A DNA stretch of 63,242 nucleotides, counting the filler, from Reticulomyxa filosa (lineage: Eukaryota > Protista > Foraminifera), in assembly GCA_000512085.1 (NCBI GenBank). It is 18 parts of 18 records of this genome, joined end to end, with 100 filler letters (N's around TTAATTAATTAA, not from the genome) between each part and the next. Parts side by side here need not be neighbours in the genome. Positions count along the whole stretch, not along the records: positions 1 to 13,366 come from ASPP01004659.1; positions 13,467 to 15,451 come from ASPP01026011.1; positions 15,552 to 26,063 come from ASPP01002066.1; positions 26,164 to 27,643 come from ASPP01018030.1; positions 27,744 to 29,072 come from ASPP01023025.1; positions 29,173 to 32,107 come from ASPP01012103.1; positions 32,208 to 34,083 come from ASPP01022483.1; positions 34,184 to 36,947 come from ASPP01009254.1; 10 more parts are not named here. One strand, 5' to 3'. Under the pieces are notes generated by a model. The model was not told the DNA's origin and searched no databases. It saw only the letters and a list, made by a program, of their open reading frames with translations. The position numbers and the translations under genes were made by a program. This document shows, piece after piece, positions 1,829-48,353 of this stretch (positions are counted from its first letter, which is position 1; each line of letters opens with the position of its first letter).

Positions 1829-2984
1829 ATGGACGTGGATATTCAATCTTCTCCGGTTGGTTATTTGGAAAAATTTGTGTTCAGTGAAAACCGTGATGAG
1901 ACGTTGAAAGATGCGGTGAAGGGAAGCGAAGAGTATTATATGGGGAAGTTGACGCAGTTGAGTTCAAAAATCGAGAAAAGCGATTTGAAAAATGAGCAAC
2001 AACAGCAGCAGCTGTGGAAAGAGATGAAGCAATTGCACGACGAGTTAGAAGGGAACGAGAAGTTGAAGTACAACTCGACATTGGGGAATTTGAGACAACG
2101 CAACGAGATGCATTTTTTGCACGTAGCAAACAGCAGCGTACAGCTATGGGAAAAGTTGAGACAACAGTTGGGTAAGCCATACCACACTAAGCCATCGAAG
2201 CAAACGCTAGTAACCTCGGAGAACGAGGATGAGAATGCGAGTGAAGTGAAGCAACACGAGCGAAGCAGTATCGACGGAAGCAAATTAGCGGAAGACAAGT
2301 TGAGAAATACGGTGGAAGACTATTGCTTGCCGACAAACTATCAATCATTGACATCACTCCTGTCCAAAGAGGCGATCGTGGAACTATGTACCTCGGACAT
2401 GCTGAAGAAACTTATCAGTGGAGCGAAGACGACCACTTCCTTTATCCTATCGAGCCGATCTCCCGCGTCGGATCGACAAAAGAAGTTGCGTCGCATGGCA
2501 CACGAGATCTTGAACGATCCTTGCTCGGTGTACATTCTAAACGATCCGAGTCGATACAAGCTCGTTCTGGAACTGATCGAAATGGACCTGTTCACGAGAG
2601 ATGACAATAACAACGATGTGTCATTTGGATCCAGATATATCCACAGCTACTTGACCCTCAACCAAATGAACGACTTGCTTGCAAAGTCCAATGACTCACT
2701 GCTTACCAATGTCACCTTTCTCACAAAGTACTTTGTCAAGTCTTTGCCCACCCAATGCTCTGCCTATTATAGCAAGAGCGCTCTGTTCGCTGATGAAATG
2801 CCCGCCGACGTCTTGCTTCAGTTTCATACCTTCATCTCCACCTTCATCAATAGCTACCTCAAACTCCCAAGTCATTCCACTGTCAAGGCTATTTTGTTGT
2901 TTTATTTGATCAATTGCCAATACGAAAAAGATGTTTTTGTTTTTTTTTTTTTTCTTTTTCTTTCTTCATTTCATAAAAAAAACA

Positions 2985-3017
<33 letters not shown>

Positions 3018-6000
3018 TGACTAAAATAAATTCTCTTGAAGGGGTCGTTTGATGCTAAACTCGTGATGGAGTATTTGCGCATTCCAAAACACGCTTCGTA
3101 CAATCACTACATTACTTCAATGTATCAGACATTTGTGCCGGCCTATCAAATGACTGCTCTAGAGCGAAGCACTACCAAAAAAGAAAAGACCAGTTATGAG
3201 GTCATTGGGTCGGGCGACTTTGCCACCTCCTATCAAGCCTTTGACCATTTCAGAAGCATTGGAAATGATGCTGGGATCATCGACGATGCCATTCTTTATT
3301 TCTTCCGAGTTTTTTTCTTGCTTTATTCTCTACACATTTTTTTTAATAGATTATATATCAAATGTTTTAATAAATAATGATTTCAAAAAAAAAAAAAAAA
3401 ACTGGTTTGCGCTTGTGCGAACGTAGAATCCTGAAAAAATGCACGAAGGATTGCCAAAAGACTTGTTGAAGCAAATCGAGCAAGACAAAGTTTTGTTTGC
3501 ATGTGCATTGTTCGTATGTCTGGTATTGTTGTTTGCAATTATGACAAGTCAATGCAATAAAATAAAATAAATTAAAATAAAAAATAAAAAAATAATAATA
3601 ATAACAATATTAATAAAGAAACGATTTGAAGCTCTTGAAAGCGCGATGAAAGCGTTGATAAAACCCAAGGAGACAGCTTCGCAGAAATCAGTGGCAGGTT
3701 GGTTGAAGAAGAAAGTGAGTACACAGAAAAATCGGGAACAGGAACAAGAACAGCAAATACAACAAAAGCAAACACAGAAAAAGCAAACACAGCAAAAGCA
3801 AACACAGCAAATGATATCCACGAAAAGAGTTAGAAAGACCAGTGAAAGCGACCACTACAGCGAGTCTGACCAGTCCGAAAGAAGCTATGACGATAACATA
3901 CGAGAACAACCACAAGAGTATAGTAATGAGAATGACGAAAAAATGCATGAGTTGGTTGATAAAGAGGCATTCATTGATGCACCCTCACGAGTTTAGTCTT
4001 TTTCTCTAAGCAATGCATGCACACACACGTATGTACTGCATACACATATGATATATGTATACGTATATATAGTATGTATATATTATAGCATAACAAAACT
4101 CAAGCTAAACATAAAAAATAAAAAAACAAAAAATTTGGGGGAAAAAAAAAAAGGCTGCAGCTTTAATGCTCAGGCCATATATTGACAGCCCCAAACTTCG
4201 AAAAATGCAAGCAGAGTTTGAATTGAGCCATGGGAACAAAGAGCAAACGAGTGCAGCGTATCATGCAATGTCGGAGCTGATGGGCGACAAGTACGTGCAG
4301 ACGTTGCGTGAGGAGATAATATTGGAATTTGAAAAGTCGAACCCAACGCACATTAGCGTCAAGTCAGGAGTGACATTGCAATTGAAGGCAAAGAACGTGA
4401 AGAGCGTATTGGTGAAAGTGTACCGCATGAACAGCATGAACTACTTGACGAAGCACTTGTCAGAAATCGCCAGCGACCTAAACTTGGAAGGGTTGTATAG
4501 CTCGTTTCCGGATAAGGAAATAAGCGTGAGTGGATTGGACGAGGGCGACGAGAAGAGTGCCTACGCAGTTCGAACCGTGGAGGTGGACCTGCAAGAAACG
4601 TTGAAGAATAAACGAGGATTGTTCTTTGTGGATTGCATTGCCAATGGCAAGCACTGTCGAGCATTGGTTCGAAAGGGCGATATCCGATTCCTCGAGCGTA
4701 AAACAAGCAGTGGTCATGTGTTTACCTTGTTTAACGAATGTAATGAGGTCGTTCTCAATGGCGGCATCATTCTCGATGGCATTCGCTATGAGACGCAAGA
4801 TAAGAGTGGAGAAGTTGTTATCCCCTTTGCAAAGGGGTCGTCGTCGTCGTCGCAAAATAAGAAGATCATCTTGTTCAGCAAAGACTGGGGCGACGAATGC
4901 AGTGTATTGGGCGAGTTCGATCAGTACTTTGAGACGTATTCATTGAATACGTCGTTTTGGATCGAGCGAGAGCAAATGCTCGACAAAAACATGTGTCACG
5001 TTGCCATTCGATCGGTGTTGCAAATCCACGGAGTGGTGACGTCGATTGAAAAGCTTCTGTGCAACGCATCGCTGGACATATCAATGCAGACGCACTCGAG
5101 TGACAATGTCAAAGTGAATCGGACATTTAACAATCTGGAAATGAGCGACTCCAAAGATTGCGTGGTAAAGTTTGTCATGCCCGCTGAGTGTACGCGTGTC
5201 GAGTTGAAATTGAAGGCGCAGATTAAAAAGTGGACGGGACATTGGAAGACGTGGTGCGCACCAAGAGTCTCAGTATCAACGAAATGAACAGAGTGTCGGA
5301 CATTGCATGTGCGCATTTGATTCCGATTTGTTCAAACGAGAAAGCCAAGTTATTTCACATTTTCATTTGCGGCAAAAATGGAGAGCCGCTAAAGCGTGTC
5401 AAGTGCACGGTGGAGTTAAAGCATGTAATGTTCCCGCGAATATTTTCATTTGACTGCGTGAGCGACGATCGAGGTATCGTGGAGCTAAAGAATATATTCG
5501 GCATTGCCACCGTCACAATCCGAATGTCGTGCAGCTCGACCACCTCGTCGTGGTCACTGTTGGGCATGCGCCAATGTATTTTCCGCGCCAAGTATCACGT
5601 AATGGAACACGAGAAGTTGTTCATTCCTTACTTCTTTGCCGAAAACAAGCCCAGTCGATTGCTCCTGACGGATACGTCATTCTCTAACGATTACAGCGAT
5701 AAGACATCTTATACCAATGGCTACATTGCCGTGCAGGAACTGAAGGCAGGCGACTACGAGTTGCGATGCGATTACGACAAGTGCAAGGTCTCCATTCACG
5801 TGTGCAAGCAAGCGCAAGACACGACAGTGGTGGTAACCAACAACAAGGCGTCAGTATGTTTGGAAGGCACCAGCATTTACGAGCTGAGCGACAGACAGAC
5901 GTTACAAATCCAACGCATCGAAGAACAAAAGACATCAGTGCGAGTATATTTGGCCGGAGTCAATGCGTGGACACGCGTCCATATAATGGCCACTCACTTT

Positions 6001-9000
6001 ATGCCCATGTTCCCTGTCTACAACGAGCTCAAGGGCATTGGCGTTCAGCAAAACGAGCTCGGCGAGTACCACGGCGTGCCCACGTTGTATTGCAAAGGAC
6101 GCGAGATTAGCGAGGAGTATCGCTACGTGCTGGAACGAGCCGGTGCACGCCAACACATTGGAAATCTGCTGCAGAAGCCGTCGCTACTGGTACGACCTTT
6201 CAGCGACAGAGCCACCACCACCGAGACGCAGGACGCAAAGAAGGGAGAGACCATCGAACACAAGAAGTACAAACCGCGTCGACAAATGGTCCCTGCTTCT
6301 CAGACCACGAGCACGTTCGATAACGTGCAATCCAATGGCAATTGGCCCGTCATCGAGTTTTTGGGCAATTGTCCGGCCGTTGGTTGGTACAACCTAGTAT
6401 GCAAAGAGGACAAATCCAAAGGACTGTTCTATGTGGAAATCGATAGCAAAGACATTCACGAATATCATCACGTGTTGGCCGCAGTTGCTGTCAATGACAA
6501 ATATTTTAGCATTCAGACTCACGTCCTCGAGTCGGTCGTGAAAAAGCAATCGACCAGCAAAAACGACTCTGCTGATCTTGTCAAGTATCGCGACGTGCGA
6601 ATGTATCCGGGATTGCATCCGGAAAAACATTTTGTGGAACAACGACAGATCGACTTGGTGAAGAATGAGTCCAAAGAGGACAAGGTGCTGATCGACGATT
6701 TCAAAATCTCGCAGGCAGAGGTATTCGAATCCATCGAACAGATCTTCAGCTTATTCAATTCATTGAGTCGAAATCCGCAGCTCGCCGAATGGGCGTTCCT
6801 GTATCAATGGAAGACTTTCAACGATGTTCAAAAACTACAAAAGTTTAACAAGTATTTGTGCCACGAGTTCAACTTCTTCATCTATTGCAAGGACCGGCCT
6901 TTCTTTGACGAATTCATTCTGCCCTTGGTTCGAAGCAAGGTTCACAAAACACTATTGGATCATTGGTTTTTAGGAGATTTGCCCAGCTTGCTGCCTTATT
7001 TGAACATTGGTGTGTTCCGGAAATTAAACGCCATCGAACAGATCTTGCTTTGTTTCGCCTTCAAAGCCGATACCAAAACCAAGTTTGTGGAATACTTCAA
7101 TCAACGACAACAGTCGATCAAACCCAATCCTTATCAATTCAAGTCCTTGTTTGAAGCCGCCTTGGCCAATCGCAGCCATGCTGATTCTTCGTCCGCTGTC
7201 GTCGGAGGAACTACCGTGCTTCCTCCTCTTGCTTCTGTTTCTCCTGCTCGTTCTCCTCTTGCTGGTCTATTTACAACTACTACCACGACGGCTGTCGCCG
7301 GCAATTATATGCAAGACGATGAGAGAGAAAGAATGGTATCATTTTTTAATTGTTGTTTGTTTTTTTTTTTGGTCAAATTTTATTCCAAAGAAAATATATA
7401 TATATACATATATATTATTATTATGCTATTGTAAACTGTTGACTCTATTTATGTTTGTATGTGTGTCTCATACAAAAGAGAGGGATCAGCCTACGTTCCT
7501 TAAGACAACTTTCGATAGCACCATCAGCTAATATGCAACAACAAGTAGAACAGCAAATGCAACAAATGCAACAAATGCAACAAATGCAACAAATGGAAAA
7601 AAAAGAAGAGGATGCGTACTCGAACTCTGATGGTGATGGTGATGATGATGATGATTTCCAATTCAAACGCGAAGCAAGTGTCAGTATGAGTGAGGCAAGT
7701 ATAGCGATGAGTATGAAAATGAGTAATGTTAACAATAACAATAACAATAATAATAACAATAACAATAATAATAACAATAATAATAACAACAATGATCGCA
7801 AGGAGATAATGCCCCAAATTAGAAAGGCTCTTGAAGAACCGGACCAAAAAATCACGAAGAACAATCAAAACGAACAGCAAAAGGCACAGTTAGGTGTTTT
7901 GAAAGTATATTGTATATGGCTACGACACAACGAGTGAGCAGAATAAAAGAAAGTGACAGTAAATGCAAGTTGTATATATGGCCATAACAATTAATCACAC
8001 AAACAATACCACAAAAACATCATAGACGAGGCGAGTATTTTGATCGCGATTTGCGATACCGCGAAGTCGGACGCAAATACTATGAGGAATTGCAAAATAC
8101 CAAGCAATTTCAGGAAACGCAATACTATGGCATTGGCTACAACAAAGACACAAAGGACCTTGTGCCTTTGAACAAATTTTGGTGCGATTACGCGTTACAC
8201 ATATTGTCGAACGACACGCCGAACAGCAAGAAACCCTTTTTGTCTGAGTATTTTGCAATACCGACGAGTTCGTTTACGGAAATGGTCTTTGCAATGTCGG
8301 TATTGGATGTACCGTTGCAAACAAATGGCGAAAGCGTGAAAAAAGAAAAGAACTTTGAAACGATGCAAATGGTAATTCAAAGCGACTATCCTTGCATTGT
8401 GTTGAGCAAGCAATTGCGTGAGACGCAAGACGTGGTCAAACGTGTGCAAGTGTCGCAGCATTACTTTGACCCGGAAGACAGATATGAAATGTTTGACGGC
8501 GAGCAAACGGACAAAATGGTGCCTGTTCATGCCATGGTCCCAAGCAAAATGTATGGTTGTCGAGCCATTATCACCAATGCCAGTAGTGCGCAAATCAAAA
8601 ACGCAGAGGTATTGTACCAAATCCCAGTGGGTGCTATCCCTGTGCAAAATGGTCAATGGACGCACACGCAGTTTGAAACCATCCCGTCGTACTCATCCAA
8701 AATCATTGAGTTTTTCTTTTACTTCCCAAAAGTCGGATATTACACTCACTTCCCAACGCAGGTCAGCAAGAACGGACAGATCCTGGGACATGGCGACAAG
8801 AACGCCAAGGACGTCACGGTGTCATTGCCCACCAAAAAAAAGATCATCAACGAGGAAAATTGGTCCGAAGTCGCGTTGAGTGGAGAGACAAAGACTATTA
8901 TCAAATACTTGGAAAAACACAACTTGCGCAAGACCGATTTAACCCAAATCTATTATCAACTCAGCGACACGGCATTTTACAAGGCGATGATCGAGTTGTT

Positions 9001-10309
9001 GGAATCGAGAAATTATTACGACGATAGTGTTTGGAGGTATTCATTGATATATCAAAACGCCCAGCATTTTGCTCAGTACTTGTATTACAATCCTTACTTG
9101 TTGCGACATTTGTTTGCACCATATTTCAAGAGTGATTGGGGCTATTTCTACGACGACGAGTCCCTTGGCAATCGCGCGAGCACGCATTTGGAATATTTCC
9201 CACTTATCAATGCTCGCACTCACAGACTGGGCGTTCAGAAGAAAATATTAAACGGAGATTTGCTGAAAACGTATACTGCGTATCTGCGACGCATGTGCTA
9301 TGTGAGCACCAGTATCAAGAATATGTCGTGGACAGATTTGATGAGGGGATGCTATTACCTGCTCTTGCAAGATCGAATTGACGAAGCGCAGTTCATTTTT
9401 AACGAGTTGATTGAAAAAGACAAAGGCAAAAACAAGCAAAGTTTTGCCATCCAATACGACTACATGAAAGCCTATTTGAGCTTGGCCGACGAAAAAGATG
9501 AGGCGTGCAAAGTCGCTCGGGAGATATGTCAGAAATACGCAAGTGCAAAGAACTTGCCTATACACAAACAACGCATCTTTGAAGAGATGCAGAGACAATT
9601 GGAGGAAATCAACGGAGACGATAAAAAAGAAGAAGTCAACGATGGCGAAAATACCAATGACGATGTTCAGGCAAATAAGCACGAAATTGGCGAGCCTCTG
9701 ATCACGTTTGAAATTGAAAATCGCCAGCTTCTCTTCCAACACTGCAAAATTGAATCGGTTCGTGTAAACTTTTATTTAATGGATATTGAACTGCTATTTT
9801 CAATGTCTCCTTTCTTAAGTCGTGGCCAAATGGATGCTTCGCAAAACGTTTTTTCATATATCCAACCAAATGAGTATTTGGATATTAAACTTCCTTTAAA
9901 TCAGTCCAATGTACCCAAACCCTACGCTGTCGACATCCCAAAATCATTGCTGCGTAACAACGTGCATTGCGAGATTGTTGTTACCTCGCCGTCAAACTTT
10001 TCTTCGGCTACTTCTTTGTCGCAGACATTTTATGATCATCGCTTATTGATCCAGGTCAAAGAGAAGTTTGGACAGTTAAAAGTCTTGGACAAAGAAAACA
10101 AAAAACCCTTGCCCAAGTGTTATGTCAAAGTTTATGCCATGGTCAACGGATCGCCCAAATTTCACAAAGATGGCTATACCGATCGAAGAGGTGTTTTTGA
10201 TTATGTTAGTGTCAATTGCGACCATTTGACAGCCACACAAAAGTTTGCCATTTTAGTGTCTTCCGAGGAATGTGGAGCCGTAGTGCAAACAGCACGTGCA
10301 CCAAAGTGA
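1829..10309 (+). CDS. Giant (~2560 aa) conserved protein of unknown function, 7 exons
   Basis: In-phase GT-AG introns at 2933-3041, 3309-3426, 3490-3618, 3991-4153, 7336-7478 and 7889-8025; one missing base in the A5 run near 5225. Motifs EEYRYVLER..GNLLQKPSLL, KYLCHEFNFFIYCKD, SFTEMVFAMSVLD, HLEYFPLINARTHRLG, YYLLLQDRIDEA and KDGYTDRRGVFDY recall a ~2000-aa uncharacterised family of planctomycete-type bacteria and some protists (from memory). Confidence 0.8.
7534..7795 (+). repeat. Coding low-complexity repeats: (CAACAAATG)n encoding QQM, and (AAT/AAC)n encoding poly-Asn
   Basis: Directly visible tandem repeats inside exon 6 of the giant gene. Confidence 0.9.
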
Positions 10310-10704: not shown

Positions 10705-12387
10705 ATGCCACCTTCCGCTTCATTAAAAGATTATTTACTTCAAAATTATGTTGATTCATCAGAAAGCAAAGCGGAAATCGCTGGTTATTTAGATGATTTT
10801 GAGTCCTCTTCAAAGAAGAAAAAAGACAAAAAAAACAAAAGGCAAGTAGATGACAAGACAACAAAGGAAGCGAGTCCAAATGTTAGTGAAGCCATACCAG
10901 TGAAGTTGGAAGATAAAAACGAAAGTGACGAAGACGACAAAAAAAAGTTTGAGCGAACAAAGCAAAGATATCAGGAGAAGATCCTCAAAGAAAAGGAGAG
11001 GTTAGAAAAAGAGGAAATGCATAGCCGGTTGATCCCAATGCCAAATATAAATGATGGTTCTGGATGGAAGACAATAACGGAAAAAACCAATGACAAAGCG
11101 AACAAAGATAGACAAGACGAAAAAACAAAAGACCATCGGAAGGAAATAGACAGAGCAAATCGAACAAAACCACCAAACAAAAGAAAGCAAACCGGTGACA
11201 GCAGTCGCAGTCGTAGTCGTAGTCGTAATCGTCGCCGTGATCGTAGTCGCAGTCATAGTAATGAAAAAGATGGCAGCAACAAAACAACAGCATTGGAAAC
11301 GAGAAGAAAAAAAGAGACCACAGCATCGTTGAGAAGCGATGACAGTGATGACTTAGATGTGAGACGACAGAGACCTTCGAAGCAAAGTAGCAATAATGCA
11401 CGTGACAATGATAGTGATAATAATGATAATAACAATAACAATAACAATGACAGCGACAGTGACATTGATGTGCAACGACGTCCACGACGATCAAATACGG
11501 ACACAAAAGCGAATACAGATACAAACAGAAATGCAACTGAAGATAAAAGGAGGTCGATGAGACGACAAAGATATGATAGCGAAGATGAAAGAGATAGCAA
11601 GGAGGGGATGAGACACGAAAAAGAGAAAGTGAAAGAGACAGGGATTACGAAATATAGCAATGCAATAATTCGAGATAGAAAAAGTGGAAAGGTGTTAACC
11701 GAACAACAGATTGCGGACATAATACAAGAAAAAGAAACGAAAAGAGATAAAAAAAAACAATTCGATTACAATTTGGAATGGAGCAGCGGATTGTTACAAA
11801 AAAAAGAAAAGCAAGCACGTGAAAAAGAGTTTGAAAAAGAAAAAAGAAAAGGGATACAGTTGAGTCGATATGCGGACGACCATGAATTAAATGAGTTCAA
11901 AAGGAGTGAATGGCGGAAAGAAGACCCAATGAACGCAATGGCATCCAAAGGGTTACTAAATAGTGATGAAGAACATTCTCATTCTTCTTCGGACGCTTCT
12001 ACAAAACGATCAGATAGAAATAAACACAAACATGAATATAAATATAAACACGAACACAAGTCTAAGCATAGACATCGCCATAAGAGTAATTCAGCTGACA
12101 GAGACAGTGGTAACAACGATAAGCGTCATAAAATAAAGGAAGAAAAGAAACCACGGTCTGAACATACTGATGCTACTTCGTCGCACAAATCTGTGACTGC
12201 CAAAGTCAAAGTTGAACGGCCAACGTATCAGGGCCGTCCTTGGGCGAATCGCTTTAATATCCTGCCTGGATATCGATGGGATGGAATTGACCGCAGTAAT
12301 GGCTTTGAGACTCGCGCTTTGAATAAAATCAGCACTCTCAAAGACGCCACTAACAAACAATACACTTCGCATCACGAAGACATTTAA
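10705..12387 (+). CDS. BUD13: Pre-mRNA splicing factor BUD13/CWC26 (RES complex), intronless
   Basis: N-terminal [13 protein letters not shown]-rich middle, [26 protein letters not shown]...RKEDPM, and the C-terminal signature [34 protein letters not shown] at 10705. Confidence 0.93.
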
Positions 12388-14017: not shown

Positions 14018-14384
14018 CTACTTATTATTAACTGTCAATGAATATTTTCCAAAGTGACGATTTTCATACTGCTGATGATTGTACTGGTGAATATAATTAT
14101 TGCTTCTTCCTAAAAAAAGAAAATAACAACAAAATATTTAAATGAAAAATAGAAAAATATTTTATTACTTAACTGGTAAGTGGCATTACCATTATGATCA
14201 TACTAAAAAATGATGATAAAAATATAATACCGAAAACTGCCAATACAGCTTTGTAATAATCCAAGTTAACGGAATAAACCAGAGCAGCAAAACTTAAAGT
14301 AATAACAAATACGATTAAATTCAATTGACAGGCATTTGAATCTTGACATTTACGTACAAGTTGGGTTACATGTTTCATGATCAT
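14018..14384 (-). CDS. Small (~100 aa) two-TM membrane protein, tandem copy 1
   Basis: Exon 14174-14384, intron 14110-14173 (GTTAAG..TTTTAG), exon 14018-14109. Two hydrophobic stretches, then the polar tail RRSNNYIHQYNHQQYENRHFGKYSLTVNNK*. Confidence 0.6.
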
Positions 14385-15206: not shown

Positions 15207-15451
15207 CTAATTATTATTGTTGACTGTCAATGAATATTGCCCAAAATGACGACGGTTATGCTGCTGATTGTAATGGTTACAATTATAATTATTGCTTCTT
15301 CCTAAAAAAAAAAAAACAACAACAAAATATTTAAATGAAAAATATAAAAATATTTTATTAATTAACTGGTAAGTGGCATTACCATTATGACCACAATAAA
15401 AAATGAGGATAAAAATATAATCCCGAAAACTGCCAATACAGCTTTGTAATA
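15207..15451 (-). CDS. Small two-TM membrane protein, tandem copy 2 (5' truncated by contig end)
   Basis: YYKAVLAVFGIIFLSSFFIVVIMVMPLT, the same intron position, then RRSNNYNCNHYNQQHNRRHFGQYSLTVNNNN*. Confidence 0.55.
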
Positions 15452-15569
15452 NNNNNNNNNNNNNNNNNNNNNNNNNNNNNNNNNNNNNNNNNNNNTTAAT
15501 TAATTAANNNNNNNNNNNNNNNNNNNNNNNNNNNNNNNNNNNNNNNNNNNNAAAAAAAAAAAAAAACAA

Positions 15570-26220: not shown

Positions 26221-26699
26221 AGGCGTTCTTATTCTTCGTACCAATGGCGGTGATCGCTTCGGTGTTTGGCTACCGTGCCTTTGGACCATGGGTCCCTCGT
26301 GCGGTCGGTGTTTTGGCTTTGACTGGCGCATTTTTCCGCTACAAAGTTATTTTTCTTGTTTTTTTTTTTTTTTTAGCATGAACCGAAAAAAAAATAAAAA
26401 GTGAATTTTTTTTTTTTGGGTGAGAACGAAATAGCCACTATACTTTTTAATTACTACGTTTGCTTGTTTGTTTGTGGTCCATTTTGTTATCTGTCTCGAA
26501 ATAAAATTGAAATATGCAATTCAAACAACAGTACGTAAAAGGGTATATCGAGAGCGCGGAAAAACGAGAGAAGCCATTCCATCGCAACATCACGTTTTCT
26601 GTGAGGCCAGTGGCCTTGTTGGCGGTGGCTTCCTGCGGCTACTTGGCTGGTCGCCAATTGTATGAGTATGTCCAATCCAAAAAGAAAAATGAAAGCTAG
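26221..26699 (+). CDS. MAPEG family protein (microsomal glutathione S-transferase 3-like), 5' partial
   Basis: Joining across intron ~26346-26530, with one T-run frameshift, gives EAFLFFVPMAVIASVFG..P..VGVLALTGAFFRYK|YVKGYIESAEKREKPF followed by a TM helix. This matches the MAPEG E..P / R..Y..GY.....R pattern. Confidence 0.65.
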
Positions 26700-34183: not shown

Positions 34184-34223
<40 letters not shown>

Positions 34224-34229
34224 GAAGTA

Positions 34230-35254: not shown

Positions 35255-36893
35255 ATGTCTGAGTCTCAAAATGATTGCGATCCAGTTTCCTCTCAATATT
35301 TTCAAGACATAGGGGACTTAGAAACCTCAGACGCACAGCAACATGTGACAGAAAAAAAAGAATTGAGTAATTTAAATCACCGGCTAGAAATGTTTGTTCG
35401 ACATCAACGAGATAGTCGAAATGAAATAAGTCGCTTGCGAAAAGCATTAGTAGATACAGAGGTCGATTTAAGACAACGCCTCAAAGACGCTGAAAAACGC
35501 CATCAAATAATACAAGATAAGATCATGGCGGAGAACGAACAACTTTCGATACAAAATAAAACCTTACAAGATCAACTCGAAACTACGGAAAAGTTATGTT
35601 TTTGAAGTGAACTCATGCAAGGAGAATTTGTTTTTAAAAATTTTAGTATAAATAACTTGAAAAAAAATTAATGCATTCTTTTCCTCTCCTCGCAGAGCAT
35701 ATCAATCTTCTGAGTCTCGTCGTGCATCACTTGATGAAAAAGTGACATGCAAAATGACCGAGATAGAGCTGAAAGACCAGCAGTTGGAGATGCTCCAAAA
35801 CCAGCTGGAGGCACTGACGAACGAGTTGATTACTGTCAAATCATCCGTCAAACTAATGGTAAAAAATGACGAGCACACGGCAGAGCATCTCCAAGCGCAA
35901 TGTGACCAATGGAAAAACAAATTTGATGTGACATGTGAAGAGTTAGCCAAAGTTACTTACGCTTTTTTTTCATTTTTACTCCAAACTTTGACTCCAAACA
36001 TCGATCATTGTTTTTTTTTTCGGAATGAAGATTTTGGAAAATTCTCGACGAAAAAAAAGAAACTCTTTTTAAATAAATGCTTGAATTGCAATATTGTGAT
36101 AAAAATACTCAGATCAGATCTCGCTACAAATGTGACGTCGATAGCTATCAGCGATCATTTAGTGACAAATTAGTGGAAAATGAAAAGTTGAAAGAGCAGT
36201 TAAATGAATCTACAACAAAATTTCAAGATATGGAAGACCAATTGAGAAAAGAGTTTGACGTCAAGATGTTAGAAGTTTGGAGCGGTTTTATTGTATTTTT
36301 ATGTTTTTTTACTTCTTTGGTGGAAAGTTTGGAGTCACCCTTTTGTGCATGTGCGTACATACAAAAAGTTCACTCAAAAAAGAGAATCGCAATATCAAAA
36401 TGAAAAAGAAGAGTGGATAAAAATGTTTAAAGAAGAATTTCAAAAGAAATTGGCTCATTTCAAAGAGGAAAATGCTCAATATTTAGAGTCCAACAAAAAG
36501 TTGGAGTGTGAGATTGTTGATACCAAAGCACGGCTTGCCCGTGTTCGTCGTGAAAAATTGGAATTGGAGGCTGAGAAACGCTCTCTAGTTCATTTTCTTT
36601 TAAAGTTCTTTGTTTTAATTTTTTAATATGAATAATGCAAGGGTAGAAAAGAGGATTAAAGAGATGTGGTTGAGACCAAAGGGAAAAATATATATATACG
36701 CATATTTTTTCAAAAAAAGGAGGAAGAAGTGGAAAAATCGCACAGTGATGTGAATGAACTTCGTCAAAAGAAAGATGAAGAGATTCATGAAAAAACAGAG
36801 TCACTCCGAACTTTGAATGACACGATTCGGCAAAAAGATATCCAATACCAACAATTGTCAAGTGCAAAAGTGCAATTAGACAATGAAATTGCT
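35255..36893 (+). CDS. Lamin-like intermediate filament protein (head and rod; tail lost at contig end)
   Basis: Exons 35255-35592, 35696-35951, 36113-36274, 36369-36587 and 36720-36893 join in frame (383 aa). Coil-1A motif EKKELSNLNHRLEMFV and coil-2 end YQQLSSAKVQLDNEIA. Confidence 0.85.
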
Positions 36894-37303
36894 GTTAAGT
36901 GCTTGCTCTAGTAAACTTTGGATATCTATATACTCTTTTTTTTTTTTNNNNNNNNNNNNNNNNNNNNNNNNNNNNNNNNNNNNNNNNNNNNTTAATTAAT
37001 TAANNNNNNNNNNNNNNNNNNNNNNNNNNNNNNNNNNNNNNNNNNNNACTATACAAAATTAAAAACACAATACTTCAAATATCCAGTAACTTATTTTGCT
37101 ATTTGGCTACAATTTTGATTCATTATGTTTTTGAATTCTTTAGAAAACATTGAACGCTACTTTTTTAATTTTTTTAACAAAGTAAGATAGTAAAAAAAAC
37201 ATACCTTTCAATGCTTGCATTCAATCAAGTCAAACAAGTTTACTTTTCTTTTAAGCAAACTTTTCAAAAAAAACTTTCATTTCTTTAGATAAAAAGCAAA
37301 TTA

Positions 37304-38174: not shown

Positions 38175-39051
38175 ATGGACAAGTCTCTCAGTAAAAGAGT
38201 ACCCCCAGCACAAATACCAGCGGTAAGTTTCATTTCGCTCAATCTTAAGAAAGCTGTTTGCCGTTTTTATATGTGATTTAAGATAAACCTATCCGAAGAA
38301 AAAATTAAAGTAATGATTAAACATTGGATTCGAGTATTAAATATTAAATTAGGATGGATCAATGATTTTGATAAATTTGTTATCAAATATGTAAGTTTTT
38401 GTTTTTCATTTAATAGATAAATATTTTTTATCGTTATTGATGATAATCATTATTTAACATAGGCAAGCAATTTTTTCATGATTGACATGTTTCGTTCATC
38501 ATCTAAATTAATTAATACATTCCTTGGACATACAGATTTTGTGTGGGCTATTGATTATTCAGCATTTGATGGTAGTAACTTACTTTGTTCTGGATCAGCT
38601 GATGGAACATTCCGCGTGTGGGATGTAGATACTGGCAAACAAGTTCAATCGTTAAATGATAATTTAAATCAATTGTATTGTGTAAAATTTTCACCATATC
38701 ATTACCATAATAACCACCGTAATATTATTTGTTCTTCATCATTGGATAATACAATTCATTTTTGGGATATAAAAAAAAATGAACAATTGATCACATGTAA
38801 TGGACACACTAATAATGTTTGTGGCATGGAATTCTCACTATTTAGTGGTGGTAAATATTTGTGTTCTGGATCATATGACAAAACAATTCGTTTATGGGAT
38901 GTTGAAGCATCAAAATCATTACATGTTTTCAATGGACATGAAAATACTGTTTGGTGTGTTGATATTTCACCATTACAAAGCAATAATAAAAATGATAATA
39001 ATAAAATGAATAATATTGGTGTGATTGGTGGAAATGGATATACTATTTGTT
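38175..39051 (+). CDS. WD40-repeat protein of a lineage-expanded family, 3' partial
   Basis: HWIRVLNIKLGWINDFDKFVIKY, FRSSSKLINTFLGH, repeated CSGS.D.T.R.WD, DISPLQSNN..IGVIGGNGYTIC. Two introns with canonical GTAAGT donors. Confidence 0.92.
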
Positions 39052-39151
39052 NNNNNNNNNNNNNNNNNNNNNNNNNNNNNNNNNNNNNNNNNNNNTTAAT
39101 TAATTAANNNNNNNNNNNNNNNNNNNNNNNNNNNNNNNNNNNNNNNNNNNN

Positions 39152-40549
39152 ATCCGAGCCAACATCCGAGCCAACATCCAAGCCTACATCCGAGCCAACA
39201 TCCAAGCCTGTCTCCAACAAAGTCCCCGACTTATGTCCCGACACGTCATCCGACCAAGTCTCCTACGTACAGCCCGTCACGACGGCCTACTCGTCATCCG
39301 ACAAATGTTCCTTCACATCTTCCAAGCAGAAACCCATCAAGACGTCCAACTGTACGTCCTTCTTCGAGACCAACTCAGTCACCAATTCGGTTACCAACCA
39401 AAAAGCCTACAACGCCCCAGCCTACAACGCCCCAGCCTACTACTTCTCGACCCACCACATCACAGCCCACTACGTCTCGACCCACAACATCTCAACCTAC
39501 TACGTCTCGACCCACCACATCACAACCCGCATCTCCGTCTACGACACGCCAGCCCACCACATCGCGACCTACGAAACGACCTACGAAACGACCTACGAAA
39601 CGACCTACAACACGACAGCCGACAACATCTAATCCAACAAAGCGTCCTACTGCATTTCCAACTACCAGTTTGTTGTATCACAACGCATACAAAAACAAAC
39701 CAAAAAAAAAAAATTGTTGCATCTAAACGTTTCACGAATTATACGATAAAAAAAAAAAAAAAAAATACAAAGCAACCACATTGTCACCAACTGCTGTCGG
39801 TCAAGCCAATCAAGCGAATGGGAATTTTGGCAAAACCAAAACAACTTATATACTCGCACTTGCCGCGCTAGTGCTATCGGCAGGAGCTTGCTGTGTGTGC
39901 GCATTCCTGTACATGAGGATTCGCAAAATACAGTCCCAACAATCGGTCCCAGAGTCGCGACTTGCTGATTCTTTACACGTGCAAACACTCTATCCTGAAA
40001 AGCAAGCTGTCGACACTGCTGGTGCTGACAAGGATCACGTTACAAACGAAGCACCTGTGTCTACTGACACGGTATGTGTTTGTTTGTTTATTTGTTCTTC
40101 TGTCCTCTTTTCTTCTTTCAATAAAGCCAATTGCAAGTACATTTCATTGGTCACACTTTTTGCAGCCTCACGGTCATCACGAAGTACACGTGTCCACCAC
40201 CTTGCCGACCAAAGGCCGAACTGCTCGGAAGTCAATGAGCTCTGCTGAAGGGAGTAGCAATGACGAACTATACAGCAAGATTGCAGCCACAGAAATATCC
40301 GCACAACGCCCTGAAGGGGAGGAGCATTTGGCCGGAATAACCAAACACAAAGCAAACAAGCCTTCAAAGATACCCGAGGACGCTGAAGGTGTTGAGTTGG
40401 GAACAACGCAATTAAACGCGATTGAAGTTCTGAAAATTAATCATAGAGATGAGAATCAAGAGGAAGAAGAACAAGAAATTAGTGCTGTTCATGAAACAAC
40501 CAAACATCCCAATGATAGACGAACTTCGTTTGATGATTATAATTTGTAA
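39152..40549 (+). CDS. PT/TSEP-repeat mucin-like type I membrane protein, 5' partial
   Basis: 12-nt repeats (ACATCCGAGCCA, ACGACCTACGAA) encode TSEP/TSKP/PTT repeats; TM segment YILALAALVLSAGACCVCAFLYM followed by RIRK; acidic cytoplasmic tail. Confidence 0.75.
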
Positions 40550-40903
40550 CTTCAATACCATTTTATATTTCTTCTCGGTGAGTTTATTACATTGTAAATA
40601 TTTCATTTCTTTCTTCAACTTACTAATTTTTTTCCATTACACATAACTGGTAGTCACTTGAGTTTAAAATTTTTTTTTTTTTTTGACTTTTTTCCGTCGC
40701 TTNNNNNNNNNNNNNNNNNNNNNNNNNNNNNNNNNNNNNNNNNNNNTTAATTAATTAANNNNNNNNNNNNNNNNNNNNNNNNNNNNNNNNNNNNNNNNNN
40801 NNTTTTTTGTAAACCTCTTTTTTTTTCCAAAAAAAACACTTTAATATGAACTGCATACGTGTGTACCACGTTGGACACGCAAACTTGAATGAATAAACGA
40901 AAG

Positions 40904-42364
40904 GACAAGCGGCGAAGACAGCAGCTCGAAGAGCGAAACAAGTGGATCCTTCGCAACGTCCCAATCGCAAAGGTGCAGATGCGAAGAAGAAAAGCGGATG
41001 GATGAGCAAAATGACGAAACGATTGGGTGGTGACAACAAAGATCTAACCGAAGAGGAATTACTGTATTTGAAAGCACAACAAGAGGATGAATCGTACAAA
41101 GCGTCGGTTATGACGGCGAATCATGAACAAGGAATCTATGTTCAAATTCAGCAAAAATTTAAGCAAGAATGTCACGAAATCGAAATTGATCGAATGAATT
41201 TTTGTGTTGAACAAGTCAAAAAATTTACTGTGCAACACAAAGAAATGTTTACCAATGAGACAATCTTGGTTTGTCTTTGCAATTGTCAATTCTCTTCTCT
41301 CTTCTTTCTGTTTTTACACTTGTTATGTTTTGCAAATACACTCAGACGATACGAACTCAACTTGAAACTGCATTGGATGCCTTGAATTCCAAAGATAACT
41401 TTGAAAAATTCCTTAAACACACGTTTTGTATTTTTTTTATAATTCGTAGGTTATAAGCATCCATTGTCAACTCTCTCTCTCTCTTTATTTCCATAGCATT
41501 GAGTCCAAAGGCCCGGAAAAAAAGCCTGTTGATTTTGTCTATCAATCTGCCGACTTTCAAAATCCTTTCTATTCTCTCAAAGACGCAATGGAAGTGACTA
41601 AGGTTCTTTTCTTTCCTTTTTTTTTTTTTTAATGAGCCAAATACATTTGAACGTGTCAAATAGAAAATTGACGTAAAAGCAAATGTTCCTAGGATTATGA
41701 CTTCGTTGTGCCAAAAGGTAATTGAATTGGACGGATTACGAACAGAAGGGATTTTCAGAATATCTGCTGCAACCTCTCATTTGGATGCTCTTCGAGAAGA
41801 CGTTTTACATCTTTTTTTTTTTTTGAGACAAAAAAAATAAATAAATAAAAAGTAAATATGTATGTTGTAACAGCTCCTAAACAACGACTATTCAGTCCAA
41901 ACAAAGGATGTCCATGTACCTGCGGGCATGTTGAAAGAATGGCTTCGAGGATTGAATGATTCCCTCATACCCGGCACCCATTATAACATCTGTGTCGCCA
42001 TGGCAAAAGAAAGACAAAAACTGGACCATGAAACATTAGATGTGTTTTTATCACAATTGCCAGGTCACAACTTATCTCATATGTTCTTTAAATATTTTCT
42101 TTTGCAAACATTGCGTGTTGTGTTGAAATTGATAAAATCAATGTAGAGGAAAACCGAGAAAGTATTCGATACTTGGTATCATTCTTGAAAAAGTTTTTGA
42201 ACCCGCAATATGTGGAAGCAACCAAAATGAATTTAGAAAATATCTCCATTGTGTTTGCGCCTACCATATTGAAATGTCCAGTTGACGACCCTACCCTACT
42301 CATGCAAAACAGCAAATTTGAAAAAGATTTTGTACAGCAACTAATCACAAATTTGGCGGTGTAA
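40904..42364 (+). CDS. RhoGAP domain protein with an N-terminal coiled-coil (F-BAR-like) region, 5' partial
   Basis: VPRIMTSLCQKVIELDGLRTEGIFRISA (arginine finger), DVHVPAGMLKEWLRGL.DSLIP, TKMNLENISIVFAPTILK. Upstream YKASV..AN..Q...F...C.EIE.DR..F fits an F-BAR C-terminal pattern. Confidence 0.9.
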
Positions 42365-42954
42365 TTTCACAAACAAATTTTTTTAAATCTTGGTGCACAA
42401 AAATGAGTGGTAGAGGATGAACCATGGCAATTTTGTTTGCAAACAAATTACTTCGCTTTTTTGACATGCAAACTATAATTCCATGTATTCATTTCCCTGG
42501 TCATAAAAGAAAATCTTTTTCTAAATTTATTGAAAATATACTCAAATCTTTCTAGCCATGCACAAAATAGCAATACCTGAACAAATTAAACTTTTAAAAT
42601 TTTTCCTTTTGCTTCCTTTTGACTTTTCTCTTTTAAAAAAAATGTTTTAAAAGGATATTCTATTTTTCTGTCCTCTCTCAATTTCATACAATTATCACGT
42701 GGATATTTTAATTTAGTAACATATATTTTTAAGAGATATCGATCACTATTTTTGCTTTGCATTTTGAAGAGGTTGTCCAGAGAAGATTCTTAATTTTGTA
42801 AGGAAAATTTTTTGAGTAAATTCTCTATAACACATTAACCATCTTATGACCTATTAAATTGATTTTCTGTTGCTTATATGGGTTGGCTGGATAGCGTTTT
42901 TTAAAAGTTTGCGAACGTAAGGAAGGAGACCGTTTAATTCAAAAAAGCCGACAC

Positions 42955-45900
42955 ATGCACTCAAATCACGAACGGTTAGTGGAATATTTCATTACTGTTG
43001 GGCTAGAAGAAAATTGCGTTCTTCCAATAACTGATGACAGTTACCTCTGTGCTAACAAAGATGTTGGAAAAGCAAGCAAACAAAAAAAATACTTGTGTGA
43101 TGAAAGCGTGCGCAAATCCAATTCGAGAGCTTCGAATAATCTCAGAAAAGGAAGAACTACCAGAAGAGTTTGTACGAATTAGTACAACAGTAACAGGCAA
43201 AGATGCGCACTTAACGAAGTTTTGATTGTCAGTTGTGAAGATATGAAAGAAAGAAAGCACAATAATGACAACATGAAAAAAAAAAAAATATATCAACATA
43301 CCAAAAAAATAAATAATAACACATAAGGAAAGGATTGGTAAACCCGGTGAAATATTATTTATGTTATGCACGTGGGAGTGTATTAAGCAACAACAGCAAA
43401 GTGTTAAATCGAATAGGATTTGTACCTCTAAAAAAAGTGAATAAAAAAGAATGGACAATTGTCGAAGAAACAATATCACATAAACAAACGGACTATTGTT
43501 TAGTGGTCAAACATGACTGTAATTTGCCGCCCATTGCGGATATATGTCTACTCTCTATTGAGGCACAAGACAAGTGTCCAGACAAATTTATGCCATTGCC
43601 AATCTCCATTAATGGCCTCACTCTGTGTTTTCGTCCAGGTTTGTGTTTTCTTTGCATGTCAGACACATAACGCAAAGACTTTTCCAACGACATACACAAA
43701 GTACCCGGAAGTGCGTTAGGACTGAGATACCAAACGTGCATATTGGATCGGTATCCACTTCAAGACTACACCGAAAATCCTCTGAGTAACACCGTGGCCG
43801 TGGTACGTCCTTCATTTTTATCTTTCCATTTTGAATACGAGCATGCGTGCACGCACAACAATTCCACTGTTGTGTGTCTTTGCATTGAACCAGTTTTGTC
43901 AGCCCGAAGGAGCCGAAATACTGATTGACAATTGTCCATTGCCCACGTTTTTGTCGTTTGTGTTGACAGACGCAGAGGGTTAGATGTCCACAGTTGTTTG
44001 TGTTGTCATTCGACAATAATGCAACTTTTGCAGAATCGAAAGGGGGGATGTGTTGTTTGACAGGCGAAAAAATGTTCGCAGTGACAGTGACATTCTACGA
44101 AGAGATGGAGGAAGCAATGGTCGAAATGGCAAAGAAGTCAGTGAATAATATGTTCTCAGGATCATGGAAACCTTCATGGCCGGACAAAGCCAAAAAATTT
44201 TACTACAGTAAATCCGTGTGTATTCTCTCGTATTATCCATTTTTTCGGAGATTTCGCGAATGTTTAAAAGAAATCTATCGCGTTGCATGTTCTCCAGGAA
44301 ATACACCAATTGAGGTTCTACCAAACCTTTTCCTGCTTGTCTATTTCTCTCATTTGATCAATTCAACAACAATCTTCTGTCTGTGTGTTATGTGACACAG
44401 AGGTTCATTGTTCATTTGTGCAAAGAGATACCACTGCCATTGCCGGCCATTCGAGCCGTTGTCGCTCAATATGCTCACACGCCAATTGTCTTCAAAAGGC
44501 CAGGCCCCACCGAATTCCCATTGTTGGATGTGGACTTGGAGAGAATCTTTGGGTGTCTGTCCTTAGACAATGTCATACTTGTGTTTCGTGCTCTTTTAAC
44601 CCAAGCCTACAAAATTGTATTGACTTCTAATTATGTCTCCGTTATCACCGAAATTAGTGAAGGTCTTATCTCATTTTTAGTTCCATTTGAATGGCAGTTT
44701 ACATGTTAGGTTCTGTCTTTCTTCTTCTTCTTTACCATTCCACCAAAAGTGATCCCCTTTTTTTTTTTCTTCGGTCTATAGACATCCCCGTCCTACCTTA
44801 TGCTGTATTCGAGATTTTAGAGGCGCCTGTACCTGTCCTTTGTGGAATGTCCTTGTCGAGAATTCGACCTGAATTCTTCTCTGCAGAGGTAATTCGATGC
44901 ATATTGTATATTTACATATGTAGTGTATATCTTTTTGGCCAATCCAAAAAAAAAAAAAAATAGTACACAGCGAGAAACGATAATAGTGGATTTAGACAAT
45001 AACAAGATCCATATTCCAGATTCGATCTATTTAATCGAACTACCAAATATCTTGGAAAAACAATTGAAAACGCAACTGATCCAAGAAGCACATGTAAATG
45101 TAGTGGAGAGATATACTTCATTGACATTGCAAACACTGGACGCAGCATTTGTTGCACAAGATACTTTGGTTAACAATATCTGGGAAAAAAAAACAGATAA
45201 TCAAATGGGTTTTTAAAACAACATGTGCGACACAGAAAGAAGAAAAAGCTGTTCGATTTGATGCATTTGCTTGTCGTGTCGCATTTTGGAATTTTTTTGT
45301 GACGGCAATGGGATCTGATTATCTGAAACATTTGATCTATCCTGATGACTCGTCTCCAATTCATGAAATTACAGATATGATACGATTGGACGATTTTTTA
45401 AAATATCGTCCAAAACCATTTCGTTCATTTTGGGAAGCTTTTTCAAAAACCCAAGCCTTTGAACGTTTTGTCGAAAATCTTACTTTTGGCTCTTCATCAC
45501 CAGACTCGCGAAAATATCAACTTCAATGGTTCTATCAGTTTCGTTCATTCCAATTCATATATCATCACCATATTCTTGCTTTGTATGCTCAACTAGCTGA
45601 CACATACACACCACTGTGGTGCGTTTTTCCCCTTTTTTTATTTTTTATTTTTAAAGAAAAGACGTTGTTATTATGTGATGTGCCGCCATGTGTGAAATGC
45701 AGATGTTGCGCACATATATCCAGCGATGTGCAAGATTCGCTCAACTCCACAGTTTTGTTTGGGAATCATAAATAGACAAATAAATAAATGAATGAACGAA
45801 AAAAATAAAAACTAAAAAAAAATAAAAAATAAAAAATAAAAAATTGAAATAACAGAAAAAAAAAAGATCCCATTTGAATAATGGATTTCAAGACTGGTGT

Positions 45901-48353
45901 TGGAAGCAACAAATCACAAAACTCCCCAAATACATAGTTCCTGCAGTAAACACTGCCGATATTCCAGACGACTATAGCTTTGAGCCTTCGGGAGTATTTC
46001 CAATGTTTGTCCCCAGTTTGTTCAGTGAGCCTCGCCATGATGAAGAAAACGAAAAGGAGGACCAAAAACAAATGAAAGCGGCGGAGATCGCAGATGAGGT
46101 TTGTCCATATCCAAACTACAAATACACAGAGAAAAGAGAAAAGGAAAAAAAAAAAAGATCAAAGAATTGAAATGTAAAGTACTCATTGAAATGGGATTGA
46201 TGAAATAGACACCTTCCTCTTCAAATAATAATCCCTATGGAGGTCGTGGATTGGTTTCCAATGCGAAATCCAAATCAATTGACGAAAAGACAAAATATGA
46301 TTTACTGCAAATCTATGGCTGTTGGTTTGCTACACGAGTGGCATCATTAGATTACGCCTCAGATATAGAGTTGACGTCCAAAGCGGCAGAAAAAACAGCG
46401 AGGGCCATTTTAGACGTGTTATATCGTATGAGTGATTCCAAAATTAGCCACGACGTGCCATTGAAACCAGACGAATTGATTTATAAGTCTGGTTTGATTT
46501 TGTGTGGCAAATTGAAGCGTCCGAATGTTATGTCCGTGATTTGCATGTTTGTGCGTATGCATCTCATTATATATAGGAATGTCTTGTATTCTTTTTTTTT
46601 TTGTCTGTGTTTAGGAAGCCAAAAAAATTTTCAAAGAATTGAAAAAACAAGGAATTCAGCCCTCTCAATCAACCTATGGGGCTTACACAAATGCGATGGC
46701 CAGCAGCGGAACTTCCAGTATGCTGCAATCAGGACTATCAAGTGGCTCCGGACGCGGCTCTTTGGAAGCACACACAGGACGCAACTCCCTGGACCTGCAT
46801 CCAGCCACTGTGGCGGACATATCCGCGAAACATCAAAAACAATCTTCTCGCAGTCGTTCTGCCATAGTAGCAAAAACAATCAAACATCAAGAAACTTCAC
46901 CCAAGTTATTCAACACAATCAATGAATCGCAAGAAATTGATCCATCCAAAAGAATGACAACAGTTGACATTTGCCTTTCTTTTTTTTTATGTGTTCGGTT
47001 CATTGTACATTGCATATTCGCACTCACACATGTAATGGAATCATGTTTGTGTATCTCCTGCCTTTCAGCCAGAGTTGTCAACGAAGCTGAACACATCTTC
47101 AATTGCATCGCATGACGAGGACGGCACAGAAGTGAAGATGATTGAAAGCGGCAACGACTACGTGTCGAAAGCAACCGAAAGATTAAATCGAGCGAGTTCA
47201 AAGGAACACCAAGCATTGGAAGAAAAAGAAGAAGAGAAAGTACAATCTACTTCATCAATGAAGAAACAAACGAGAAGTGCAGAGAATGGGTCAAGAGACG
47301 AAACAAAGAATATAAGCGAGCCCAAAAAAGAGCAGACGCAGCAAACTGCTATTTTAATAGATTACAGTACGATCCAAATGGACACTCGACAACAGTGCAA
47401 ATGTGGATATATGTTATCTGACGCGGAAGTGTTGGCAAACTGGCCTGAAGAATTTTTGTCCATGACTATCAATTGCAGTGCTTGCAATTTGAATTCTTTT
47501 GTTCCAAAAATTCGAGTTCGATGTATTGCTACTGAAATGTCTCTTCAAAAACAAATTTATCAACAAATCACTCTTGACTTTAAGGTGACTTATTTGTCAC
47601 CTTCTTATCTTAGACGATCGATGGAAACTATTGTCAGCAAAAATCGTCAACGCTTAGAAGACGGTGAAAATCTGAGGAAACATCATCCTGATCAATATTG
47701 GAATCTTTTGTGGTACTTTTTCCAACGAAAACTAGATTTGAATTGGCTTTTGGAGGATCTCGATTCAAAAAATCTTCAAATTGTACCTATTATCGACACT
47801 GATTCCACCAAATTTCCAACTGACAATGAGGTATGCTTTGCTGTACTTTCACAAAATAACCAAATGTTATGCACATTTTCAATGAACGTGTGTGTCTTCT
47901 CTATGGCGGTGGGGAAAAAAAGGATCTCGATAAGCAAATGCAGGTCATCCTCGGACATCTCAAAACAAAAATTTAAAATTGGCAATGATGCAGTGGCTAA
48001 AGAATAGAGAGAACACCTCAAAAATGGAGCGAGGATATTCGGTATGGGATGTATCGTTACGTGATGCTTTTTTCAACTTAGGTGTTCCCGTGTTGTTTGA
48101 AAGATATGAAGACTATATAAGTGAATTTCGAAAAGTTTGCGCTATCATACAACCAGTTCATTTTCTTTATTTTTTTATCCACATCTAGCAGCAAACAATT
48201 TGTTTTTCATTTGTCGTGTGTAAAAAGGTTATGGGCGATTGCCCTCCAGAAAAAAAAGCAGTTAAATACGAACTCTTTTTCGGTCATGTGCGACCTTTAT
48301 ATCCAAGAATACAACAGTTTCAAATTCAATCAACTACTGCCAGTCACTCCTAA
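42955..48353 (+). CDS. DENND4: DENND4-like Rab GEF (MABP + uDENN/DENN/dDENN + PPR-like + C-terminal Cys domain), ~15 exons
   Basis: RLVEYFITVGL; MABP PIRELRII..EELPEEF.RI.TT.TG.DA.L and YLCYARG; LDRYPLQDY; SKSVCILSYYPFF..FRECL; KTQAFERFV; PDELIYK..LILCG..QGIQP...TYGAY; C.CG..LSD.EVLA.W..C..C; YLSP..LR; HP..YWNLLWYF. Confidence 0.9.

Follow-up and report, generated by a model that had tools for sequence, protein, structure and literature searches.

What marks the start of an intron in a genome whose donor sites mostly begin with GTT? That donors have a purine at +3 and a G at +5 is regarded as near-universal, and the question is raised by 63,242 nucleotides of the foraminiferan Reticulomyxa filosa (GCA_000512085.1), 18 short contigs joined by N spacers and hereafter called the window. 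The original prediction, made from this sequence, held that about three quarters of the donors begin with GTT, that no GTRAGT consensus exists and that positions +4 to +6 look random; it proposed an altered U1 or U6 small nuclear RNA (snRNA), or a "U1-relaxed, protein- or structure-guided" choice of donors. Analysis of 55 donors indicates that the GTT majority is real and that, in the largest group of donors, it is a displaced consensus and not a loss of consensus. On the sequence evidence, the small nuclear ribonucleoprotein (snRNP) of U1 probably pairs with this group in a register shifted by +1.

Genes were read in three frames, which fixed both ends of 49 introns (60-246 nt) and gave six further donors that were counted without a fixed acceptor (36894, 51430, 55830, 354, 32891 and 56529). 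Frame reading placed 36 of the 55 donors, and 19 were fixed by protein homology without any donor model. For the latter, 15 introns of a DENN-domain gene and five of a RhoGAP gene were taken, all frame-compatible GT or GC donors were combined with all AGs, and the joined peptide was scored against homologues; donor 46963 is the one DENN donor that homology does not fix. One intron (579, minus strand) kept its donor from frame reading, and its decoys stem from the wrong phase. Five doubtful cases were dropped before counting: the third intron of an F-box-like gene, a PI3K intron near 52850 (minus strand), a donor at 54343 at a contig end, a frameshifted piece at 57952-59178 and a possible short intron near 23642. 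In the 49 introns the GT and AG ends lie in register with the reading frame, as in major (U2-type) introns.

The base at +3 is T in 38 of the 55 donors, A in 14, G in two and C in one. Between 2933 and 48230, where three quarters had been claimed, GTT begins 33 of 44 plus-strand donors (75%). The donors at 2933, 3309, 3490, 3991 and 7889 read GTTTTT, GTTTTT, GTTTTG, GTTTAG and GTTAGG, and these, like the five of a coiled-coil gene labelled lamin-like, are as originally quoted; of the four F-box introns said to begin with GTT, three do and the third has no in-frame GTT donor. The base after GT is T at 35% of the GTs inside introns, at 27% of those in coding sequence and at 34% overall; the donor frequency exceeds the first two levels at P=2e-7 and P=5e-11, respectively. 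Intron starts are T-rich (51% T at +7 to +26), so composition accounts for part of the effect, and the excess over this local background is smaller (P=0.005; P=0.013 for the 19 homology-fixed donors). The prediction was to fall if T at +3 did not rise above background; it does so against intron, coding and, modestly, local levels. Among the homology-fixed donors GTT was found in 15 of 19, against 8.3 expected from random frame-compatible GTs (P=2.4e-4). A purine at +3 occurs in 16 donors and G at +5 in 18, short of what is usual for U2-type donors.

When donors are split by the +3 base and the last exon base (the slash below marks the exon-intron boundary), three groups emerge, with a single GTC donor remaining. 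The GTA or GTG group (n=16) is canonical, with G-1 in 12, G+5 in 10, T+6 in 10 and G at -1 or +5 in 15; five of its members read GTRAG, contrary to the claim that this consensus is missing. The G/GTT group (n=12) has A-2 in eight, G+5 in four and G+6 in none. In the largest group GTT follows A, C or T (non-G/GTT, n=26); the group has A-1 in 20, C-2 in 10, A+4 in 10, G+6 in 14, T+7 in 19 and both G+6 and T+7 in 12, with G+5 in only four. The described randomness at +4 to +6 thus holds only when the classes are pooled.

G+6 separates this group from all other donors (14/26 versus 1/29, P=3e-5), also within the homology-fixed set (6/8 versus 0/11, P=0.001) and after removal of duplicate and donor-only cases (13/24 versus 1/24). 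The share of 14 in 26 also stands above the 11.5% G at +8 to +20 (P=2e-7), above internal intron sites (16 of 93) and coding sites (40 of 152, P=0.006) and above frame-compatible decoys (6 of 61, P=2e-5), and the G+6 donors are spread over six genes. On the exon side, measured against codon-position background, A-1 occurs in 20 of 26 (10.5 expected, P=2e-4) and C-2 in 10 of 26 (5.0 expected, P=0.017). The displaced signal is C-2, A-1, T+3, A+4, G+6 and T+7. A nine-base donor consensus was slid along each group with the group-defining positions ignored. In the non-G/GTT group a shift of +1 gave 81 matches against 44.2 expected (z=6.9), the unshifted consensus z=1.8, and shifts of -1, +2 and +3 negative z; the GTA or GTG group fits at 0 (z=5.4), and G/GTT fits at 0 (z=2.6) and not at +1. 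At 14173 (minus strand) the donor CA/GTTAAGT is the donor consensus displaced by exactly one base.

How secure is the placement of these donors? Proteins from outside this assembly (P0003, P0005 and P0007) favour ten DENN donors, eight of them GTT; P0005 is a EukProt entry labelled Nonionella stella, and P0003, with 1442 amino acids on a 4508-base contig, must be intronless. Margins are thin at 45538 (1, 8 and 7 points) and at 44889, where P0005 favours a GC site. For nine further donors, seven of them GTT, the support comes from R. filosa paralogue models; being gene predictions, these are less independent. When any dinucleotide was allowed, the placed GT came top among all in-frame cut points for 17 of the 19 homology-fixed donors. 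If intron positions are shared, residues read through in paralogues imply T+3 and G+6 at the position of 45538 (P0026), and T+3 with G+5 at that of 41423 (P0158). A composition-only placement model, blind to +3 to +6, agreed with frame reading at 35 of 49 introns; it is too noisy to serve as a judge and contradicts homology at 6 of 15 DENN introns. The public models RFI_13653 and RFI_13651 read through 6 of the 20 homology-favoured donors (40803-51226), and RFI_13653 has runs of F and K in place of conserved DENN motifs. Protein searches with exons as queries returned only R. filosa models, and two metagenome scans with DENN alignments found no relative.

Duplex energies computed with the standard U1 5' end as printed in PMC4856993 suggest how such donors could be read. 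In the normal register the mean is -5.6 kcal/mol for GTA or GTG donors and -4.9 for G/GTT; for non-G/GTT donors it is -0.15 in the normal register, -1.5 in the shifted and -0.6 in the bulged one, the shifted register being better in 15 of 26 and the normal in one. The shifted register also tells true donors from decoys (-1.5 versus -0.1 kcal/mol, P=2e-7). In the proposed arrangement U1 G11, U10, C9, A7, two pseudouridines, C4 and A3 would pair with -2, -1, +1, +3, +4/+5, +6 and +7, after which U5, U6 and Prp8 would fix the cut at GU; donors with G-1, GTA and GTT alike, would fall to standard U1, paired in the normal register. Homology places the cut in front of GT: moving it one base later, to give a TT donor, scored worse in all eight homology-fixed cases of the shifted group, and this cut site was rejected. 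The bulged +2/+3 register, of which Tan et al. list 54 human sites (PMC4856993), resembles the pattern in its GTT start with G+6 and T+7. Its exon-side pairs need G-1, and it was rejected because G+6 occurs in 0 of 12 G/GTT donors and G-1 in 0 of 14 GTT donors with G+6.

With standard U1, shifted pairing is weak because U+2 faces C8. When each of the 27 single changes at U1 positions 3-11 was tried, C8A and C8G alone brought the non-G/GTT group to -4.6 kcal/mol, and with either change 22 of the 26 true donors lie at or below -2, versus 17 of 61 decoys. Because U stands at +2 in any GT site, part of this gain is inherent, and the result counts as a prediction, not as evidence. The standard U1 has probably been kept, as 28 of the 55 donors fit it in the normal register. 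Given its weak pairing with shifted donors, a second, variant U1 with A or G at position 8 is a tentative prediction. In its full form, equally tentative, Foraminifera would possess two U1 snRNPs, a standard one for G-ended exons and a position-8-purine U1 reading (C)A/GUUNNGU one base out of step, for about half of the introns. It is possible, though somewhat doubtful, that proteins instead stabilize the shifted duplex of standard U1. Of the original interpretation, donor reading particular to the lineage is supported, with an altered U1 as the leading hypothesis; the consensus-free choice of donors fails, since the largest group carries the canonical consensus displaced by one base.

Several observations weigh against the shifted register. 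With standard U1, 10 of the 26 non-G/GTT donors form no stable duplex in either register, and decoys also gain from C8A or C8G (-1.5). G+6 is absent from 12 of the 26, A+5 is not enriched (8/26, P=0.17), and A+4, T+7 and C-2 each reach just P=0.02-0.03. The G+6 pattern was noticed post hoc, after tabulation, and its binomial P survives correction for a few hundred cells. A-4 is enriched (16/26, P=0.002), which points to U5 loop 1 instead of U1, and T+3 in 12 of the 25 G-ended donors is left unexplained. As to placement, 36 of 55 donors rest on frame reading and 9 of the 19 homology-fixed ones on predicted paralogue models; the composition-only model chose GTT in 26 of 49 introns against 21.5 expected, a non-significant excess (P=0.10); and the two public models hold just 3 of the 20 DENN and RhoGAP junctions, several of which lie beyond their span. 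Frame changes within exons occur near 5230, 21605, 43080, 47970 and 61880, mostly at A or T runs. They are probably assembly errors, and such homopolymer frameshifts weaken the frame logic.

The enrichment of A-4 leads to the rival that survives best, an unlikely one nevertheless, in which U1 plays a minor part: the ACAGAGA box of U6 would recognize the displaced G+6 and T+7 with one U bulged, and U5 loop 1 would take the A-rich exon end. In its favour, no other single signal comes near G+6 in strength (P=2e-7), A+5 shows no enrichment, and A is over-represented at both -1 and -4, the outcome expected from pairing with the U5 loop (PMC8283771); a non-canonical U6 register has also been proposed at one human site (PMC11162779). 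That published shift, however, is -1 and not +1, and the same source has the cut normally at a fixed distance from the +5 G:U6 pair. C-2 (P=0.017) and the fixed T+3 are predicted by U1 G11 and A7, and not by U6.

Could the pattern instead be drift? Under relaxed selection at +3, T-rich intron starts would slide to GTT and the remainder would be small-sample noise. The local T content that makes the +3 excess modest, the several donors that are GT plus a T run and the non-significant result of the blind composition model all suit this explanation, which may well account for the 12 G/GTT donors. Drift does not yield G+6 specifically after non-G exon ends (14/26 versus 1/29, and 6/61 in decoys), and Table S4 of PMC11347168 counts as "major" 89% of introns in Plasmodium falciparum and 57% in Dictyostelium, both AT-rich, versus 12% in R. 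filosa, a class that depends on annotation and also takes the 3' end into account. As an explanation of the whole it is improbable.

Slightly less probable still is a single U1, altered opposite +3 and serving all donors in the normal register, as in Entamoeba, whose GUUUGU donors have a matching U1 arm (10.1101/2022.06.08.495308, in the part available). T+3 is indeed the majority base in both exon-end groups. The normal register nevertheless gives non-G/GTT donors no gain (G+5 in 4/26, P=0.35), none of the eight best single-change fits lies in register 0, 16 canonical GTA or GTG donors persist, and Entamoeba donors are 88-90% one hexamer. A single altered U1 in the normal register was rejected by the register scan and the single-change energy fits. 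Finally, that the donors are an artefact of hand placement, or are truly cut one base later, is very improbable: junctions were placed by frame reading and homology, public models differ at most of them, the assembly has frameshifts and human TT donors exist (PMC6280755), yet GT came first in 17 of 19 homology tests, TT lost all eight, and it is the public model that loses conserved DENN motifs and has F and K runs.

The 3' ends of the introns may be unusual as well, since the introns run from T-rich to A-rich. Across the 49 acceptors A-4 is found in 30 and A-6 in 29, and -3 is C in 20, A in 16 and T in 13; positions -23 to -4 contain 38% A and 36% T, and so no pyrimidine tract. Three branch-type patterns were no commoner at intron 3' than 5' ends and fell below shuffles, and neither acceptor nor intron phase differed clearly between the donor groups. 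An origin of the introns from Introners was rejected, as all-versus-all blastn of the 49 introns matched only one duplicated pair and short low-complexity stretches. The introns and donors, by gene, are collected in the table.

Table. Introns and donors of the window (window coordinates; slash, exon-intron boundary)
Feature	Position	Strand	Donor	Remarks
Large gene, intron A1	2933..3041	+	T/GTTTTT	non-G/GTT, no G+6; frame logic; composition model just 0.34
Large gene, intron A2	3309..3426	+	A/GTTTTT	non-G/GTT; frame logic
Large gene, intron A3	3490..3618	+	A/GTTTTGT	shifted type (G+6, T+7)
Large gene, intron A4	3991..4153	+	A/GTTTAGT	shifted type
Large gene, intron A5	7336..7478	+	G/GTATCA	GTA group
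Large gene, intron A6	7889..8025	+	CA/GTTAGGT	shifted type; pairs most strongly of all in the shifted register (-7.6 kcal/mol); a GTG donor at 7934 has similar composition score
Duplicated gene, intron N1	14110..14173	-	CA/GTTAAGT	frame preserved in duplicate gene
Duplicated gene, intron N2	15302..15366	-	CA/GTTAATT	paralogue of N1, 94% identical
F-box-like gene, intron	18788-18977	+	A/GTTTCT	
F-box-like gene, intron	19189-19279	+	G/GTTACC	
F-box-like gene, intron	21427-21508	+	A/GTTGAGT	shifted type
Intron S1	26346..26531	+	A/GTTATT	non-G/GTT
G-alpha gene, intron	29320-29464	+	A/GTATGG	canonical group
G-alpha gene, intron	29692-29937	+	G/GTATGT	canonical group
Intron T1	31741-31817	+	G/GTTACC	
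Intron T2	31877-32044	+	A/GTTACA	uncertain; composition model favours GTC donors
Coiled-coil gene, donors	35593, 35952, 36275, 36588, 36894	+	GTTATGT (35593), GTTTGG (36275), GTTAAGT (36894)	all non-G/GTT; G+6 in three of five; 36894 intron cut by contig end
WD40 gene, introns	38223-38282, 38391-38462	+	GTAAGT (both)	fully canonical
Intron M1	39668-39772	+	CA/GTTTGT	
Intron M2	40072-40165	+	G/GTATGT	
RhoGAP gene, introns	41269..42146	+	41269 G/GTTTGT; 41423 C/GTTTTGT; 41603 G/GTTCTT; 41802 C/GTTTTA; 42064 G/GTCACA	41423 shifted type
DENN gene (RFI_13653 locus)	43219..48227	+		15 introns, 12 GTT
DENN non-G/GTT donors	43219, 44705, 45538, 45752, 46527, 46963, 48156	+		first five with G+6
DENN G/GTT donors	43639, 43979, 44315, 45169, 46099	+		
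DENN GTA donors	43803, 44889, 47831	+		
PI3/PI4-kinase donors	52004, 51430	-	G/GTTTTT, G/GTTTAC	outside the range first described; 52004 not favoured by composition model

The large gene (1828-10309, plus strand) has about 2,500 codons and six introns, and none of its three long exons gives a Pfam match above cut-off. At 14000-14400 and 15200-15451 (minus strand) lies a tandem duplicate of a small gene, probably encoding a membrane protein, in which +6 is G in one copy and T in the other. The F-box-like profile match is weak (E=0.021); the uncounted third intron of this gene (20602-20801, plus strand) could use an in-frame GTC at 20623, GC at 20608 or GA at 20734, the last just before a T run and giving a 68-nt intron; a homopolymer error could also rescue a GTT at 20717. 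Pfam G-alpha profile positions 162-193 and 195-268 adjoin the first G-alpha junction. The lamin-like label of the coiled-coil gene (35277-36947, plus strand) has weak support: a Filament match, below cut-off (E=0.034), is confined to the last exon, which ends at profile position 301 of 313. The two GTAAGT donors of the AT-rich WD40-repeat gene (38175-39051, plus strand) are the only perfect canonical hexamers of the set.

RhoGAP junctions were the best-scoring ones against the R. filosa paralogues P0158 and P0159, and the gene has a Pfam RhoGAP match. The DENN gene was compared with the homologues named above and with paralogues P0004, P0008 and P0156; a DENN exon is 100% identical to R. filosa hypothetical protein RFI_13653, and RFI_13651 lies on the same contig. 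Elsewhere in the window, 10705-12384 (plus strand) holds an intronless homologue of Bud13, a splicing factor of the RES complex (PF09736, E=2.6e-25), with a long low-complexity N-terminal part. A coding stretch at 28189-29047 (minus strand) is actin-like by eye, and no single stop-free frame spans 28191-29045. A 644-codon open frame at 59281-61212 (plus strand) has weak matches to URGCP, RHD3 and GBP-type GTPases, a Cys-rich tail and an in-frame stop downstream.

What would a shifted register mean? It has been regarded as a human curiosity, and a free-living, intron-rich eukaryote using it in about half of its introns would be a natural system for studying how the cut site is fixed while U1 is paired elsewhere. 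Two U1 snRNPs, if they exist, would make a third system for recognizing donors, a second code within the major spliceosome in which the spacing between U1 helix and cut site differs by one base. The idea opens the question of what U6 pairs with where G+5 is missing, and of snRNA paralogues dividing donor classes, and it makes a pointed prediction that is inexpensive to check: some U1 gene should carry A or G at position 8. The window holds no Rfam match, snRNAs included, and for R. filosa all four columns of Table S7 in PMC11347168 record zero snRNA hits. Shifted donors would be misplaced by gene-finding programs that learned GTRAG, and the two public models examined run through 6 of 20 donors; the main reference proteome for foraminifera may therefore have to be annotated anew. 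The accessible parts of PMC3079666, PMC10245619, PMC11069148, PMC13746701, PMC9860276 and PMC8283771 give no foraminiferan donor motif, and in the literature searched, which covers few subscription papers, no report of GTT or shifted foraminiferan donors came up.

PMC11347168, in the parts available, puts 6,244 of the 50,607 annotated R. filosa introns in the major class (12.3%) and 11,851 in the non-canonical one (23.4%); for Plasmodiophora the shares are 44% and 4%. These figures are consistent with the present result but indirect, because the 3' end enters into the class as well and the R. filosa annotation is poor. The same parts report no minor spliceosome components in Rhizaria and name R. 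filosa only for minor-like introns. The minor (U12-type) system is similar in having two donor classes per genome, often in one gene, but its donor consensus is lacking among the R. filosa donors. Entamoeba, another protist with a U majority at +3, offers a precedent for a co-evolved U1 5' arm, as does Mastigamoeba with another changed arm (10.1101/2022.06.08.495308, in the part available). Entamoeba is intron-poor, with one rigid hexamer, G+5 in the normal register and one U1, whereas R. filosa is intron-rich (15 introns in one gene) and has degenerate donors, G at +6 and coexisting canonical donors; GTTTGT itself occurs in only 4 of 55, so that no rigid hexamer of the Entamoeba type is present. 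The closest likeness is to the +1 shifted U1 register in human, rare according to PMC4856993, PMC11162779 and PMC6280755: in both, donors of GT-AG introns match the U1 5' end one base further downstream and are cut before GT. In human the pairing was shown by suppressor U1, while in R. filosa it is deduced from sequence, and standard U1 is one candidate reader; by analogy, the R. filosa pattern would work like the human shifted register at a far higher frequency, in 26 of 55 donors, half of them with G+6.

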